The notes under the pieces: model-generated
The model's database searches: none
Told to the model about the DNA's origin: nothing
The model's input: the letters and a program-made list of their open reading frames with translations, nothing else
Virus record (IMG/VR): IMGVR_UViG_3300033125_000635
Span: 1-28,737 of that record
Origin: a virus
Taxonomy: Duplodnaviria; Caudoviricetes
Reading direction: 5' to 3' (one strand)
DNA: 28,737 nucleotides
Shown here: one piece after another, positions 15,107-28,737 of the stretch
How the letters are laid out: each line of letters begins with the position of its first letter
Numbering within the stretch: position 1 is the stretch's first letter
Position numbers and translations under genes: made by a program

Positions 15107-18100
15107 TGCCAACAGGATTAGAAGAACTTGATCTTAAAGTTTATATAGATTATCCACAACAAAGACAAAATAGACGTGGTCCATTTGTATTTGCAACTGA
15201 TGGTACACAAGTTGATGCTGGAACTAAAGTAAACTGTATTATTGATCCTGTAACATTAAGTGTATTTGGTACTCCGCTACCAATGACTAATGAATGGAAA
15301 GCTAACTTTGCAAATAATTACGCAAGATATGCTAAAACTGATTTCACTTTTGTAAATGCAATTAAGTGGAGACAATACACTTATTATGGCAATGGTGATT
15401 ATTATATAATCTCCAACTCAGAACTCTCTGCTGATCAACAATCTCCTGTTGAATTAACTGGTGGTGTATCAAGAAATGAGCCACTATTCTTTTCATTCTC
15501 TAAATTACAAAAGAAAAATAGCGATACAAAAGCATTATTAACTTTATCTTGGGATAATAACGACAATAAAGATAAAAATACAAAGTTAGTATTTAATGCT
15601 GATGGCTCTTGTGATGTTTATCGTGGTTTTGTTCCTTTATCAGGAACTATTATTGCTCAAACAACAGGAACAGCTATAACTGGAATTGGTAGTAAATTCT
15701 TAACTCAATTCTTACCTGGTAATAAAGTTTATGATGTTTATGGAAGATTGCTTGGTACAGTTGCAACAGTTACTAATGATCTTTTAATGAGTTTATCAGC
15801 AAACTCTGCATTTGATTTTGTTGGTTCTTATAGCAAAGGTAATCCATTAAAGGTACAAAGTTATTCTCGTACTGAAAGCAATTATTCTCAAGGTAGACCA
15901 ATTTCTACAATTGCTAATCCTAATGACCAATACAATGATGTTTACATTATTCCTATGCGTGGAAGAGACTTATTAGTATTAACATCTTATGGACTTAATT
16001 TTTGCCATTCATTCTCTGATTTAAATGTTCCTGATCCACCTGCTAACGTAAATGTATATAACGATGATGGTCCAGTATTTACTTCAACTAATGTGAGTTC
16101 TGTTCCTATTATTCTTCCAGATGGTAAATTTACTATTACTATCAATCAAGGAAAGGTTGGATTTCAGTTAGCTAAATTATATTTTAGATCTAACTGGAGT
16201 ATTGAATCTCAAATTATAACTACTCCACAAGCTCCACCACCAACAAAATCCAATCTTACTGGTGGAATAACTGTTAGTCAAGGTTCAACAACAATAACTG
16301 GTACTGGTACATTATTTACATCAGAAGTAGCTGTTGGAGATAGAATTTCCTATACAATTGATACTGTTGGAAGTATTATATTAGGAACAGTTGCTACTGT
16401 TACTAACGATACATCTTTAGAATTATTTGATCCATCTCAATATAAAATTACTAATAATACTTATTTTGTTGAACGGAAGTTATCAGGTACTTTATCTTTT
16501 ACTCAAGGAAATACAGCTGTAACAGGTTCTGGAACTTTATTTTCTTCTGAATTAGCAAAAGATGATTATCTCTATGACAATAATAATAATTTTATTGGAA
16601 TAGTAGATACTATAGCGAGTAATACATCTTTAGCATTAGTTAGCGGTTCAAATATAACAGGTGTAAATCAAACTCCTATATGGAAAAATATTAATCTTTA
16701 TTTCACAAGATTTATAAATATACAAAGTGAATTTTATGGTCAAGTTCTAACTACATCAATTGATACTGTATCGTTGCAAGCTGAAGTAATAGATATTGCT
16801 GGCAATACTGATCCATATAATAACAAAAAAACACAATTCAAAATTAAAATATCTCAAACTTGTTCAGATCCATCATTAGTTGCTTCTACTGATTTTGGTA
16901 ATGCATTTTATTCTGTAGATCTAATTGCTTATTTGAAAAATGAATCAACTTCTAATTCAAGTGTAGATATTAAATCTGCATTAGAATCGTTTAGTTTATC
17001 AAGAAATGAAACTGGTGAATTGACACTAAATATGTCAGCAAGAAAACAACTATTAGAAGATTTAGGAGTTGTAAAACCTGAGATTATTTCTAATAGACCA
17101 ATTAAAGTAGATTTATTACCAAGATATCCAGCATTACTTACTGGACTAATAAGTTTCTATGGTACTGAAATAATTTATGGACAAGATACATTATTTACAA
17201 CTGAAGTAAATATTGGAGATACACTTTATCTTAATAATGGAACACCTATAGGTATTGTTAGTTACATTGTTGATGACACTGAGTTAGGTTTATTATCTAA
17301 CTTTATTGGTGGTACATCAGAATATAATGAATATACAGCCACACCATTATATGAAGCAATCACATTATTTGAGGGATATTTAGATTCTCCTGAAATTGAA
17401 TATATTTATGGTGAAAACTATGATAAATACAGTTTGCTTACATTCTCAGCAATAGATAAAAAACAACATTTAAATACTGCTTATTTAAGTATTGCTCCTA
17501 ACTTTGATAGCATTCCATTAGAAGATGCTATGATACAATCAATTAATTTAGCAGGATTAGCTGGAAATAATTACAATGTACCAACAATGTTTATTGATCC
17601 AACTATTACTACATATCAAGTTCCAGTTAACAGAAATAATAGCAATGGACAATATAATTTTGTTATTAATCTTGGAGATACTTCTGGTGGTTTTATTGAA
17701 AAACTAAGATCTGATTATGCTCAAAACTTTACATTTTTTAGTAAAGGACAATGGAATCCATTAGAACTTACTCAAGATGGTTGGTTATTTTCAACAGTAT
17801 TTAAACTAAAAGATTTGGATTATATTCTTGCTGAAGCTCCATTTGTATCACTATATCTAAATGAAACATCAGCTCAAGATGATGGTGGTATTCCAATTTA
17901 TGAATCTTACAAAAGAACAATTCGTAAGATGTCTAAAACTTATGAAACACCAGAAGCTAATAGAATTATCATTGTCGGTTTAGATAAATCAGATGGATCA
18001 AGAATAGAATATCTCAAAGATGATGAAGCATCTCAAAATCCAGAAACTTATCCTGTAAATAGACCTGATAACTGGTTAGGTGACATTTATCCATTTGTAA

Positions 18101-22965: not shown

Positions 22966-23514
22966 TTATACCGTACTATTTTTAAGATTAATCCTTGACG
23001 AGTCTGGTGTCCACTTACTTCCTAAACGATAAATAGTTTTACCAATCATAAAAGATAAAAACTTTATATAAGCATTTTCTGAAAATGCATAACTCTTGTG
23101 ATTCGTACCAGTAAATTCTTTTAGTTTATCTTGACAAACATTATTTATTGCGTGGATAACAAACCATTTTTCATCTTTTTCTTTATCGATGCTATAACAA
23201 ACTATAAAGAATGGTATGTCATTTCTAACACCATCGCTATCATATCTTTTGCAGAACGATCTTAAGCAACCAGATTGATTCTTATCTATAAAAGGTAAAT
23301 AGTAATATCCACCAGAGTATTGAATCTCTTTACACTCAAATAAACATCTGCAAACGTCATCGCCATCTTTATCAGTACCAGTAAAGATACCAAACATATT
23401 ACGCTCTAAAAGCTCTAACATATCAAAGTCTAACATAAGATGATTATGCGGTAATGAACGATGCCATTCACTGTACTTTTGATCTCTAATTCCTGTCTTT
23501 TCTAAACTTGCCAT
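22966..23514 (-). CDS. Hypothetical protein, possible PD-(D/E)XK-fold nuclease
   Basis: YSEWHR...LDFD...LFECKE...Q pattern; AAGGAGG SD and own promoter. Confidence 0.55.
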   Translation of the reverse strand: MASLEKTGIRDQKYSEWHRSLPHNHLMLDFDMLELLERNMFGIFTGTDKDGDDVCRCLFECKEIQYSGGYYYLPFIDKNQSGCLRSFCKRYDSDGVRNDIPFFIVCYSIDKEKDEKWFVIHAINNVCQDKLKEFTGTNHKSYAFSENAYIKFLSFMIGKTIYRLGSKWTPDSSRINLKNSTV

Positions 23515-23583: not shown

Positions 23584-24069
23584 TTATTTAACGTGTTGCC
23601 ATTCTTTATTTCTATAAATTGCAGAAATTTGAGATTGAGATATATTATATTTCAAAGATAAATCTTTTTGAATTCCTTTGTAATAATTTTTTAATTCATT
23701 TTTAATTTGTTTGACTTGAAATTCATTTAATTTTGACATACCAGATTTTGATCCTTTAATATGTCTATTTTTATTTTTGCAATCTGCATTATTTTCTTGT
23801 ATAGTTCCTAAAAACAAATGATTTGGATTTACACAAGTAGGATTATCACATTTATGGCAAACAAATAAATTATTTTCAACTTCACCATTAAAATAAATAT
23901 AAGAAAATTTATGAGCAGTTGAACATTTTCCATCGAAATGAAAAATACCATAGCCAAATCTATGTTTTCCACCAACCCAAATCCAGCAATTTTCAGTCTT
24001 TTCTACTTTTGATAAAAATCTATCTATTGGTAAAATTTTTATTTTTCTTTCATAAACACCTGTTGGCAT
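23584..24069 (-). CDS. HNH homing endonuclease with C-terminal HTH
   Basis: CWIWVGG...VCHKCDNPTCVNPNHLFLGTIQEN; LSLKYNISQSQIS. Confidence 0.92.
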   Translation of the reverse strand: MPTGVYERKIKILPIDRFLSKVEKTENCWIWVGGKHRFGYGIFHFDGKCSTAHKFSYIYFNGEVENNLFVCHKCDNPTCVNPNHLFLGTIQENNADCKNKNRHIKGSKSGMSKLNEFQVKQIKNELKNYYKGIQKDLSLKYNISQSQISAIYRNKEWQHVK

Positions 24070-24070
24070 T

Positions 24071-24442
24071 CTAAACTCCTAAATAATCTCTAATACAATC
24101 TATGCAAGATTGAGCGTCATAAAATACTTCAAACTTCGTAGGATTGTTTGAGTGTTTGTTGATAAGGTCGCTAAACATTTTTTGCTCTAATGTTAATTTG
24201 CCTTTGCCTTTTTTGATTTCAATCCATAGAGAGCTGTATCCATTTTTGCTAATAGGTACGATTATATCATAAACACCTTTACGCATTCCAAGTTTTTTTA
24301 ACCACATAATAATCGCATAACCAGTACCAAAAAATGAGTTAGGTGTATGGAAGATAACCTTTAACTGTTCATAAGTTTCTTCATTACTACGAACCCAATC
24401 CATTACCTCTATTTGTATTTGACCTTCTAATGATTTTGCCAT
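24071..24442 (-). CDS. VRR-NUC domain nuclease (putative Holliday junction resolvase)
   Basis: FHTPN, LKKLGMRKGVYDI, LWIEIK, GKLTLEQ. Confidence 0.88.
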   Translation of the reverse strand: MAKSLEGQIQIEVMDWVRSNEETYEQLKVIFHTPNSFFGTGYAIIMWLKKLGMRKGVYDIIVPISKNGYSSLWIEIKKGKGKLTLEQKMFSDLINKHSNNPTKFEVFYDAQSCIDCIRDYLGV

Positions 24443-24447
24443 ATGTG

Positions 24448-24480
24448 ATTATACCATAGAAGGTTATCTTGTTGTATAAT
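24448..24480. promoter_or_regulatory. Divergent back-to-back -10 elements
   Basis: Leftward TGgTATAAT (hexamer 24448-24453) 5 nt before the VRR-NUC ATG; rightward TATAAT at 24475-24480. Confidence 0.65.
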
Positions 24481-24501
24481 AGGAATGGTTATGATGAGAA
24501 C

Positions 24502-24600
24502 TATACAAAGCTTATATGTAGTATATCTTTTAGGTATTCTTTGTGTATGTTTTCCTTATATAATAGATATACATTCTGTATGTAAGACGTATATAAACTT
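24502..24600 (+). repeat. Array of nine degenerate 11-bp units, each starting TAT
   Basis: tatacaaagct tatatgtagta tatcttttagg tattctttgtg tatgttttcct tatataataga tatacattctg tatgtaagacg tatataaactt. Confidence 0.85.
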
Positions 24601-24672
24601 TTGATTCTCTATCCTAAAATGGCTCTGTTAAAAGAAAAGAATTAAAAGAAAAAAGAAAAAGGATAAAAGTAA

Positions 24673-25317
24673 ATGATTAGAAATCCAAATATTATTCCAA
24701 AGCCTATTATGAAAGCAATGGAGAATTTTTCAAATGATAAGTTTATTAGCTATGTTTGTAAGAATCATATCAAGTTGTTTAGTGATGAAATTCTTGAAAC
24801 TGAAATTACAGACTTAAAAAAATACATAGATAGTTTATTTATCAATTTTGAAAATGATAACAAGAATATCTCAGCAGTGAGAGAGGAAAACTATTTTCCA
24901 GATTTAAGTAATGTGTTAGTTGTTATTGAAAAAGATTCTGATTTTATTCCGGCAATAAAAGAAGTATTATGGCAATTGAAAAATACACCATCAACATCTA
25001 AAAAAATACTAATGCATATTGCAAGAATAGATAGCAATGGGATTTATAAATTAATATCAGAACAAGACTATCCAGTTACAAATCAAGCTTTTAGTTTAGC
25101 AAGCTTCAATGGTTTATTAGATTGTTCAAAACAACCTATAAGAGATGGAAAATCAGCTTATCTATATAAAAATCCTACTGATAAAAGAAAAGGATTTTAT
25201 TACAAAGGAAATCTTTTATCATTAAAAGAATTAAGCGAAATCAATAATGTACCTATAGTAACAATTCAATCAAGACTTAAAAAAGGAATCAAGATTCATC
25301 TGGCTATTCAAAAATAA
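24673..25317 (+). CDS. Hypothetical protein with C-terminal HTH-like DNA-binding module
   Basis: YYKGNLLSLKELSEINNVPIVTIQSRLKKG resembles DNA-binding tails of phage endonucleases; AAGGA SD. Confidence 0.6.
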   Translation: MIRNPNIIPKPIMKAMENFSNDKFISYVCKNHIKLFSDEILETEITDLKKYIDSLFINFENDNKNISAVREENYFPDLSNVLVVIEKDSDFIPAIKEVLWQLKNTPSTSKKILMHIARIDSNGIYKLISEQDYPVTNQAFSLASFNGLLDCSKQPIRDGKSAYLYKNPTDKRKGFYYKGNLLSLKELSEINNVPIVTIQSRLKKGIKIHLAIQK

Positions 25318-25355: not shown

Positions 25356-25589
25356 ATGGAAGATTTTGAAGATGATGAGATTGAAGGCTATACAGACTCT
25401 ATTATGCCATTCTTAAGAATTTATGTTTCTGCTGGTAGAGAAGATCACGACTTGTTAGAAATTGAAGAAGTGATTGAATTCTTAACTAGTGAAAAAAGAA
25501 GCATAAATGACACTATAAAAGAGCTTATGGATAAAGGTATGGCAAATGTATATGCCTGTTCTTTTAACAGAACTTTGAAGGTGTTTTAA
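25356..25589 (+). CDS. Small acidic hypothetical protein
   Basis: 77-aa ORF directly behind the promoter. Confidence 0.7.
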   Translation: MEDFEDDEIEGYTDSIMPFLRIYVSAGREDHDLLEIEEVIEFLTSEKRSINDTIKELMDKGMANVYACSFNRTLKVF

Positions 25590-26959: not shown

Positions 26960-28259
26960 GTTTCATAAATATTTAATTCAAACATCTCCTAAAACTTGGA
27001 ACTTACATTCTCCGCATATTCTGTTACTTTGCAAATATTTACAAGATGTTGCTGATGGAAAAATTAAAAGATTAGCAATATCACAGCCACCAAGAAGTGG
27101 AAAGAGTGAAACCTTATGTAGATTTGCTGCTTTTATGCTTGAAAAAAGGTCAAATAGTAATGTTCTTTGCTGTGGATATAATCAGAGCATAGGAAGAAGA
27201 TTTAGTCGTAAAACAAGAACTATTTTAGACCAAAGAATTGGTTTATCAAAAAACCATCAAAGTATAGATGAATGGAGTATTGATAATGGATCTGTTTATT
27301 ATGTCGGTTCAGTAAACTCACCAAAAACTGGCATCGGTTTCCAACTTGTTATTTGTGATGACTTAATTAAGAACAGGGAAGAAGCATCATCTCCTGTTAT
27401 TACTGAAAAATTGCGTGACTTTTATAAAGAAGATCTCTATTCAAGGCTCGAACCCTCCGGATCTATGATACTTGTAGGAACCAGATGGAGTGAGAATGAT
27501 CCTATTGCTTATGCTATTTCGTTAGATGATAGTTTTGTAGTAATCAATGTAGCTGCAATTTGTGATGATGAAGAGAATGATCCTTTAAATCGTAAACTTG
27601 GTGAGAGTATATTTCCAGAAAGATATTCCACTGAAGATTATTTAGCTATTAAAGATGTTATGGGTGAATTTGCATTTAGTAGTTTATATCAAGGCAAACC
27701 AGTTCCTAAAGATGGTGGATTATTTAATGTTAAATCTCTCAATTATATTAATGAAATTCCAAAGATTATTAGAAAAGTACGTTCTTGGGATGTTGCAGCT
27801 TCTGATGGAAAAAATGACTACTCTGCTTCTTCTCTATTAGGAATTGATAGTGATGGCAACTATTATATTTTAGATGTTTGGCGTGGTCAATTAGGAACAA
27901 AAGAAAGAGATATAAAAATACTTGACACTGCAAAAATAGATGGACCAGAAGTAAAAATAATACTACCTGAGGACCCTGGAGCAGGTGGAAAAAGTATGAC
28001 TGTTTACTGGTCTAAAATGTTAGCTGGTTTTAATGTAAAGTTTGAAAGACCATTAGGGAATAAAACATCAAGAGCAGAACCATTAGCAGTTCAAATAAAT
28101 AATGGTAATTTTTATATATTGAGAAGTGATTGGAATCGTGATATGATTAGAGAAATGGAGATGTTTCCTTTCTCTAAAAATGATGATCAAATTGATAGCC
28201 TTTCATCAGGATTCAATGATTTAGTTTTGAAAAATGTAAGAAAGTTTTATGCGGTGTAA
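26775..28259 (+). CDS. terL: Terminase large subunit (start uncertain)
   Basis: Walker A QPPRSGKS, Walker B VICDD, nuclease motifs RSWDVA and DDQIDS. Confidence 0.95.
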   Translation: MRKDISDNRTPKVLQNYIGHWNLGPLVFSKPQTTYNNPSNWKNSIHKTTNSDTLKLIPPINEFHKYLIQTSPKTWNLHSPHILLLCKYLQDVADGKIKRLAISQPPRSGKSETLCRFAAFMLEKRSNSNVLCCGYNQSIGRRFSRKTRTILDQRIGLSKNHQSIDEWSIDNGSVYYVGSVNSPKTGIGFQLVICDDLIKNREEASSPVITEKLRDFYKEDLYSRLEPSGSMILVGTRWSENDPIAYAISLDDSFVVINVAAICDDEENDPLNRKLGESIFPERYSTEDYLAIKDVMGEFAFSSLYQGKPVPKDGGLFNVKSLNYINEIPKIIRKVRSWDVAASDGKNDYSASSLLGIDSDGNYYILDVWRGQLGTKERDIKILDTAKIDGPEVKIILPEDPGAGGKSMTVYWSKMLAGFNVKFERPLGNKTSRAEPLAVQINNGNFYILRSDWNRDMIREMEMFPFSKNDDQIDSLSSGFNDLVLKNVRKFYAV

Positions 28260-28260
28260 T

Positions 28261-28737
28261 ATGGCAAATTATAAAGGTAGAATTCCAGTTGATCCTGAAA
28301 TTAGATTTTTTAATAAAGTGAAAAAAACAGATACTTGCTGGATTTGGCAAGGAGCTAAACATTCATATAAAGGATATGGATCTTTCAGTAATGGTAAAAA
28401 AATAGTCAAAACACATAGGTTTGCATATGAGCATTTTGTAGATTCTATACCTGAAGGATTTTGTGTTTTGCATAAGTGTGATAATCCATCTTGTGTACGA
28501 CCTGATCATTTATTTCTTGGAACAAATCAAGATAATGTTGATGATAAATTATCAAAAAATAGACATCCTCGTGGTTCTCAATGTGTAAATAATAAATTAT
28601 CTGATGATGAAGTTATTGAAATCAAAAAAGCTCAATTACATTATTATTGGGGTCAAAATACCGATCTTGCTCATTTTTATAAAGTAAGTAATAGAACAAT
28701 CTCTGATATCAAAATTGGCAAAAGATGGTCTCATATA
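28261..28737 (+). CDS. HNH homing endonuclease (absent from the ORF track; ends at nt 12 if circular)
   Basis: MANYKGRIPVDPEIRFFNKVKKTDTCWIWQG...VLHKCDNPSCVRPDHLFLGTNQDN...KRWSHI; 159 codons with no stop before the window end. Confidence 0.9.
   Translation, partial: MANYKGRIPVDPEIRFFNKVKKTDTCWIWQGAKHSYKGYGSFSNGKKIVKTHRFAYEHFVDSIPEGFCVLHKCDNPSCVRPDHLFLGTNQDNVDDKLSKNRHPRGSQCVNNKLSDDEVIEIKKAQLHYYWGQNTDLAHFYKVSNRTISDIKIGKRWSHI

Follow-up and report, generated by a model that had tools for sequence, protein, structure and literature searches.

Low-affinity DnaA sites in E. coli oriC follow one another at 2-bp spacing, and the parC site of plasmid R1 has 11-bp ParR repeats. Direct repeats beside a purine tract are, as a general kind of arrangement, already well known. 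The lambda origin is described as a set of iterons beside a 40-bp A+T region with nearly all purines on one strand, and plasmid iterons are described as lying in helical phase (PMC5043065). Such phasing is reported to matter in iteron plasmids (PMC5043065; PMC10797057). The SPP1 protein G38P is described as binding oriL, inside its own gene, and a second site, oriR (PMC5737612), and the iterons of PLE are placed in a non-coding region (PMC7145576).

The window analyzed here is a stretch of 28,737 nucleotides from a virus (Duplodnaviria, Caudoviricetes; IMG/VR record IMGVR_UViG_3300033125_000635, positions 1-28,737). It carries a non-coding array of TAT trinucleotides between a nuclease gene and the gene for a 214-aa protein with a predicted winged-helix (WH) domain. 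We tentatively read the array as the iteron half of a lambda/SPP1-type origin that lies outside any frame and is read by the adjacent 214-aa protein, a reading whose chances we put a little short of even. By analogy, the array likely works like an origin of this type; it is not classed as a member because it does not lie within an initiator gene and because neither a known initiator nor a loader turned up. The locus resembles the lambda origin in gene O, SPP1 oriL/oriR, and Lin1244_N (PF14297)/DnaD-like origins in having phased direct repeats, a purine-skewed A-rich tract, and a promoter upstream, and it shares TAT/ATA cores at 11 bp with the PVJ1 replication gene and with two other loci (L049 and L028, below). 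Unlike the lambda/SPP1 type, the array is non-coding, lies upstream of rather than inside the candidate initiator gene, and holds three invariant bases; the protein belongs to no known initiator family, its WH domain is central, and no phage helicase or loader occurs among the 22 ORFs scanned. That such origins can be detached is shown by SPP1 oriR and PLE and by the candidate L028. Iteron plasmids (P1, F, RK2, and R6K) offer a second comparison, with an array upstream of the gene and, as in two relatives of this phage (L001 and L002), a pitch of about 21 bp with two half-units. Unlike those plasmids, whose Rep proteins have two WH domains, the phage protein has one WH domain plus a small HTH and no Rep_3 match, no canonical DnaA box lies beside the array, and the two-half structure is lost in the window.

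The source record is classed as linear and 94% complete. The end and start of the window join as they do in L002, so by its sequence the window is a complete phage circle. Sequencing runs that contain the phage are labelled riverine or freshwater; their run shares, below 0.2, are uninformative on habitat, and none of the runs listed is an RNA run. A PHROGs scan covered 22 window ORFs, with the tail-region ORFs outside it, and assigned terminase, portal, protease, capsid, tape measure, and lysis functions, together with three HNH nucleases, a resolvase-like nuclease, an XRE protein, and a sigma factor. Polymerase, primase, helicase, loader, and integrase genes were not found among these 22 ORFs. 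A portal search of GTDB and a WH alignment run on metagenomes and GTDB gave no host, and blastn of the array region against GenBank phages gave no match. The literature searched, mostly outside subscription papers, gave no description of the phage group or the array.

Nine TAT at an exact 11-bp period, with an offset tenth, had been described in a sequence-only reading of the window, and the positions were confirmed. TAT occurs at 24502, 24513, 24524, 24535, 24546, 24557, 24568, 24579, and 24590; the tenth copy, at 24490, lies 12 bp ahead of the first in-phase copy, and the phase is broken at 24601 (TTG). No trimer has a longer phased run at any period from 4 to 40 anywhere in the window, and the runner-up (7 at period 6) lies within a coding repeat. 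The same reading had named shuffled sequence as a control, and no control run was of equal length: runs stayed at 6 or below in all 20,000 shuffled versions of the 230-bp intergenic region and in all 150 genomes drawn from an order-4 Markov model (any trimer, periods 4-40), and of 8,000 order-2 Markov strings modelled on the array none came to 9 and one came to 8. Chance and low complexity were ruled out by these controls as the source of the array. As had also been anticipated, the array was not reported by a repeat-finding program. Beyond TAT the unit is loose: the second base after TAT is C or T in 9/9 units and the following three are A or T in 25/27, and the 8 bases other than TAT have a mean identity of 0.35. 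No second copy of the unit was found elsewhere in the window's control regions.

Array variants in contigs from other samples carry nine listed substitutions across 24501-24562 and no indel. Five of the nine fall on the base immediately before TAT and none in TAT (P 0.049, where X14 and X18 carry identical changes and one more X14 difference is unlisted). A second X14 record, a low-depth contig, matches 24502-24547 with eight differences, has a different left flank, and represents a further array variant. Two other bases for the array were considered and rejected. A coding role fails because a frame of 37 codons, running from 24491 across the array, is interrupted in each of the two relatives that have the array, and minus-strand open frames share neither start nor phase among relatives; frames across the array differ between pitch 11 and pitch 21. 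RNA structure on the + strand gave z -2.6 in the window, which is not matched in the two relatives (+0.2 in both; mononucleotide shuffles).

Searches of IMG/VR with the portal and the sigma factor brought up relatives. Four of them (L001, L002, L003, and L184) cover the slot, which is bounded by the leftward genes on one side and by the conserved 77-aa gene on the other; L182 and L185 are without slot coverage and outside the counts given below, and L181, which begins right of the slot, was used only together with L184. L001 and L002 have the gene order of the window (VRR-NUC gene, array, and a 241-aa homologue of the WH protein) and nearly identical flanks. Their arrays consist of ten units with a TGTAGA core and gaps that alternate between 10 and 11 bp, and autocorrelation at lag 21 is high (z 6.9 in L001 and 6.2 in L002). 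Aligned by unit, the window array and the L001/L002 arrays are homologous in register: TA stands at unit positions 3-4 in 28/29 units, and A at position 4 in 29/29. Conservation of period and TAT phase among relatives had been put forward as a check, and it held in part; position and helical pitch are kept, but the exact 11-bp period and TAT are not (pitch 10.5, TAG).

At least three interchangeable contents occur in the slot, one of them without a recognisable gene. The L003 contig begins inside the slot, its first 35 bases left-flank-like by eye, and has a 128-aa ORF, an AAA_25 helicase (E 4e-19), and a hairpin-rich spacer, with the array absent. The module (L003:52-1842) comprises the 128-aa ORF, a 333-aa AAA_25 helicase without a primase domain, and a 383-bp spacer that includes a (TA)n run; judging by the N-terminal extensions of P0036 and P0049, other phages may have an L003-type spacer too. 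The slot of L184 is a 301-bp AT-rich spacer from which the array, WH gene, and VRR-NUC gene are all absent; TTTAAA-rich palindromes occur in its spacer region (L184:1822-3236), and an uncharacterised 141-aa ORF lies nearby. L184 and G001 are contigs 99.8% identical over 4.1 kb that give nearly the whole genome, with a gap of about 400 bp inside a tail gene, and no helicase or other replication gene was recognisable in them. The phage family can thus apparently replicate without the cassette, since L184/G001 lacks the array, the WH gene, and a recognisable helicase, and this gene-free content raises the question of how that phage replicates.

The array and the WH gene are both present in 3/3 genomes and both absent in 2/2, on a basis of only two array types and five slots. 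The WH proteins of L001 and L002 are 67% identical to each other and 33-38% identical to that of the window, from which they are separated by clade. Identity follows the split in array type for the WH protein and VRR-NUC, and not for TerS, XRE, sigma, or the 77-aa protein. Because WH and VRR-NUC identity follows array type, the array, WH gene, and VRR-NUC gene appear to move as a cassette; because VRR-NUC tracks array type too, the co-variation of array and WH protein may be plain linkage. As single queries against IMG/VR, the WH protein and VRR-NUC returned nothing. All 52 matches to the right-flank motif in metagenomes were unrelated, as was the third match in a search with the left-flank motif.

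Table 1. Features of the slot and its surroundings in the window.
Feature	Coordinates	Strand	Remarks
VRR-NUC / Holliday-junction-resolvase-like gene	24071..24442	-	Left member of the cassette; also next to the L001 and L002 arrays; missing from L184
Left flank	24443..24494	.	Conserved; back-to-back -10 hexamers; near-identical in window, L001, and L002
Phased array	24500..24598	+	Nine units, 11-bp pitch, invariant TAT; homologous register TGTAKATAR
Right block	24613..24635	+	23 bp invariant in all three array-bearing phages; unique in genome; contains TAAAAT
Purine-rich tract	24630..24669	+	37/40 A/G; candidate unwinding element
214-aa WH protein	24673..25317	+	Small helical domain at the N-terminus (1-64), winged helix predicted at about 86-170, basic HTH at the C-terminus (171-213)
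77-aa acidic protein	25356..25589	+	Present in all relatives, array or not; 56 homologues

The surroundings of the array are laid out as in Table 1. In the left flank, a leftward TATAAT (24453-24448) lies 5 nt ahead of the VRR-NUC start and a rightward TATAAT occupies 24475-24480; we infer that these hexamers act as promoters, and a two-hexamer promoter scan did not list them. The TAAAAT of the right block is a possible -10 hexamer. An A-rich tract and an HTH-bearing ORF had been noted after the array, and both are as described. The purine tract is the highest purine 40-mer of the genome on either strand and begins 37 bp past the last TAT, and the chance that the best phased run and the best purine 40-mer lie 37 bp apart is about 0.003. 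In relatives the same tract is 35/40 purine (L001) and 30/40 (L002). The window tract is at the 96th percentile for low duplex stability, melts no more easily than the array itself, and also provides the WH gene with its 5' leader and ribosome-binding region. No weight is given to the local GC-skew minimum at 24427, which falls at a gene-strand switch.

The VRR-NUC gene matches a PHROG resolvase (E 7e-9) and Pfam VRR_NUC (E 0.003, below cut-off). The 214-aa protein belongs to an uncharacterised family with 13 near homologues and 14 representatives at E 1e-30 or better; about 25 homologues (P0003-P0013 and P0076-P0093) are full-length. No curated family was found when 26 family members were compared with Pfam and PHROGs, including Phage_rep_O, Lin1244_N, DnaB_2, RepA_N, and Rep_3; comparison with PDB sequences gave nothing, and there was no Atlas annotation. 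The structure model has pLDDT 84, and Foldseek gave no match to it at E 0.001 or better. The WH domain matched PadR, MarR, TubR, and Cdc6/ORC about equally (Z 6.7-7.7), with none outstanding; TubR (Z 7.2, rmsd 2.4, 73 aligned) was tied with many, and most fold matches were transcription regulators, though failure of a fold search to single out an initiator family does not exclude one. The C-terminal HTH has a weak PHROG match and is of a type repeated in multi-HTH proteins and many phage proteins. DnaB_2/DnaD-C ancestry of the N-domain was rejected (hhalign probability 0.7%). The 214-aa protein is a candidate array-binding initiator. The 77-aa protein gave a model of pLDDT 45 with its fold not resolved, and its Atlas lead is 'MarR family' (0.92). 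In P0095, a single sequence that could be an artefact, a WH domain of the 214-aa type is joined to the 77-aa protein, a possible partner of the WH protein.

If the array is an origin, one copy of the WH protein would bind per turn, all copies on one helix face, and cooperativity would make up for a weak site of 3-5 bases. The protein-array complex would bend supercoiled DNA and open the purine tract, at which host helicase and replisome would be loaded; the host is invoked because the phage showed neither a helicase nor a loader. Transcripts starting at the putative left-flank promoter and running through the array would express the WH gene and also subject it to autoregulation, as at lambda PR. 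A change in the WH protein would go along with a change in repeat word and pitch. Several lines of evidence support the origin reading. The array is non-random and conserved as DNA, with no frame conserved across it; the phased run and the best purine 40-mer lie only 37 bp apart; and annotated initiator genes show the same order of repeats, then purine tract. The complete genome has no recognised replication gene among the ORFs scanned, L003 has an AAA_25 helicase and no array in the slot, and the array and WH gene co-occur, with WH identity tracking array type. Against it stand the lack of a known initiator family for the WH protein and its mostly regulator-like fold matches, the existence of L184/G001 without the cassette, and the purine tract, which is also the WH-gene leader, falls to 30/40 in L002, and melts no more easily than the array. 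A survey of similar arrays also counts in part against it.

Arrays of this kind were surveyed by scanning 12/64 IMG/VR parts for TAT x8 at 11 bp, which gave 120 loci. Plain tandem repeats made up 129/162 strand matches, and four loci were as degenerate as the window. The 138 ORFs that adjoin these loci include one Lin1244_N initiator (L049), one primosomal-protein-like ORF (L028), and one ParA (L060). Because only 2/120 loci adjoin initiator-like genes, TAT x8 at 11 bp is not diagnostic by itself. L049 has ATA x18 at 11 bp within the Lin1244_N initiator, then a pure purine run, with a DnaC-like loader next. In L028 the 11-bp array lies outside the frame, just past the stop of the primosomal-protein-like ORF, and is a candidate for another detached origin. 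This locus, from an unrelated phage (L028:1069-1602), shows an 11-bp ACATAT array and A-rich repeats after the short ORF. A cryptic degenerate TAT array occurs immediately upstream of the parA gene at L060:3001-3102, and further degenerate 11-bp ATAT/TAT arrays are present at L081:2990-3090 (portal-side spacer of a P2-like phage) and L091:301-380 (a short contig). Fourteen annotated initiator genes were also compared (12 from two tblastn searches, lambda O, and PVJ1, which was found with the tract of L001). The best purine 40-mer is mid-gene in 10/14, and a 10-12-bp 4-mer chain just upstream of the purine tract beats all local control windows in 5/14; the chain test failed in 9/14, lambda O among them, which weighs against the origin reading. 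The PVJ1 replication gene, chosen for its tract similarity, has GTAT at 11 bp followed by a pure purine run. Purine runs like that of L001, (GATAAGA)n, occur in Bacillales plasmids (L207:133-200 and L208:1501-1560), upstream of an HTH gene and a TraM-domain gene.

The array may instead be bound without any role in replication initiation, as an operator or a centromere-like platform on which the WH protein forms a filament that sets VRR-NUC/WH expression or serves as an StbA-like tether. We consider this distinctly less probable than the origin reading but the most credible of the other explanations. Both would have a common binder, and they are not mutually exclusive. The array lies between the rightward -10 and the possible second -10 of the invariant right block, the purine tract is at the same time a leader, L184 does without the cassette, and WH fold matches include PadR/MarR regulators and TubR. 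In R388, the stbDRs are described as 9-bp units set 2 bp apart, which gives a cycle of 11 bp; they precede their own gene and need no NTPase (10.1101/2022.04.29.490116). The locus is like StbA on stbDR/stbS in having 9+2-bp direct repeats in the promoter region of a small DNA-binding protein's gene, and ParR-parC and TubR-tubC, with direct repeats of about 11 bp in the promoter region of the binder's gene, group with this type. Unlike R388 StbA, it has a phage context, a far more degenerate unit, a purine tract, and a helicase as alternative occupant of the slot, and family scans detected no StbA homology. This reading leaves the L003 helicase in the same slot and the missing replication genes unexplained. 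The L060 array just upstream of a ParA gene is a parallel, but no ParA/ParM/TubZ motor NTPase occurs among the 22 ORFs scanned, no second unit copy lies in the control regions, and nothing indicates a plasmid state. TerS, which carries an HTH, had been suggested as a binder, and the array could then be a pac signal; alternatively, it could be a decayed minisatellite without function, as erosion of a tandem repeat of 21 bp could leave a sparse pattern and the absence of substitutions in TAT reaches only P 0.049 with the X14/X18 changes shared. Both are very unlikely. TerS identity is 74% between the window and L001, which have different arrays, and 42% between L001 and L002, which have the same array, and relatives with terS but without the array exist; TerS is disfavoured as binder, and the XRE protein appears disfavoured on the same ground, as its identity does not track array type. 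Decay would not preserve 27/27 TAT bases and exact pitch while the other bases drop to 35% identity. An origin read by another factor, either the universal 77-aa protein or an initiator from a helper phage or prophage, is the least probable reading. In favour of the 77-aa protein are its presence in all relatives, a homologue that its source calls 'DNA replication protein DnaD', and one fusion to the WH domain. Against it, L003 and L184 have the protein but not the array, it is acidic, its identity does not follow array type, and neither Pfam nor PDB sequences gave a DnaD match.

Host DnaA was the other binder that had been suggested, and E. coli oriC is described as having anchor boxes R1/R4 (PMC5716108). 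The array would then be an oriC mimic: host DnaA-ATP would polymerise on same-orientation variant boxes of the minus strand (TTATCTACA-like) and open the left flank, with the WH protein accessory. We regard this as improbable. The relatives' minus-strand units are box-like (TTATCTACA and CTATCTACA), with 1-2 mismatches to TTWTNCACA in 7/10 units of L001 and 5/10 of L002, and the best box-like units are at the right end in all three arrays, as are the units of the window that best match TGTAKATAR. Mean minus-strand mismatches are 2.5, 2.9, and 4.0 (highest in the window), with the units in the same orientation about one turn apart; the window mean compares with 5.0 for other TAT-containing 9-mers (P 0.006). 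The 9+2 geometry of the window and a genome without a known initiator also fit, as does the likeness to oriC low-affinity arrays in same-orientation box-like 9-mers. The left flank reads TAA-TAG-GAA-T(A/G)G, which is DnaA-trio-like by eye, overlaps a -10 hexamer, and is at the 72nd-90th percentile for low stability. Unlike oriC, however, the array has a wrong core position in every unit (A instead of the expected G, C6 of TTATNCACA, in 29/29), no consensus anchor box, and a word that differs between sister phages, whereas a host protein would not. The free position of the box is fixed as T in the window while its specified positions vary, and no perfect box like R1/R4 lies in the region, the sole one being at 15150, in a tail gene. 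Boxes with at most one mismatch are missing from the window's control region, and the relatives' best units have one. Being repeats of one unit, the array boxes count as roughly a single independent draw, and two or fewer mismatches occur in 1.4% of the 9-mers of the genome. The register first proposed for DnaA (+ strand, one base before TAT) did not survive: the scores given for ctatacaaa (7/9) and atatacatt (6/9) are arithmetically right, but mismatches are 2-5 in the window and 5-6 in L001, and the register is not conserved. TTATCTACA occurs in a primer table of T. tengcongensis oriC work (PMC1888806), from which nothing is concluded. In a further version, also improbable and if anything more so, the phage would have no initiator of its own, the WH protein would be an adaptor for host DnaA-ATP in out-competing the chromosome, and the cassette would be exchangeable with a helicase module or a gene-free origin. 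No paper on host DnaA with a phage was found in the literature searched.

The earlier proposal of a helically phased platform and candidate origin is supported by the conserved position and pitch and the origin-like layout, and of the binders proposed the 214-aa protein appears favoured by its presence and absence together with the array and by divergence that tracks array type. Many small uncultured phages are without recognisable replication genes. If the origin reading is true, an origin and a new initiator family would be named for one such phage group, and an iteron array could shrink to three invariant bases held by helical phase and invisible to repeat finders. The phages would also offer a natural protein-DNA variant pair, TAT at 11 bp and TGTAGA at 10.5 bp, in which swaps could test specificity and pitch.

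Other features of these genomes were observed. Three related HNH endonucleases (1400-1885, 23584-24069, and 28249-28737) differ in placement among relatives. The portal of L001 has 552 aa, and L001 also has a DNA methyltransferase-like ORF that is missing from the window. A 182-aa ORF (22966-23514, minus strand) has 79-84% identity across relatives and no family match, and is PD-(D/E)xK nuclease-like by eye; a strong consensus promoter (23568-23541) and a terminator (22938-22914) lie near it. A TATAAT hexamer stands 5-7 nt before several gene starts (24442 and 25356 in the window, and L184:3237), which suggests leaderless mRNAs, and starts of this type may be a clue to the host group.
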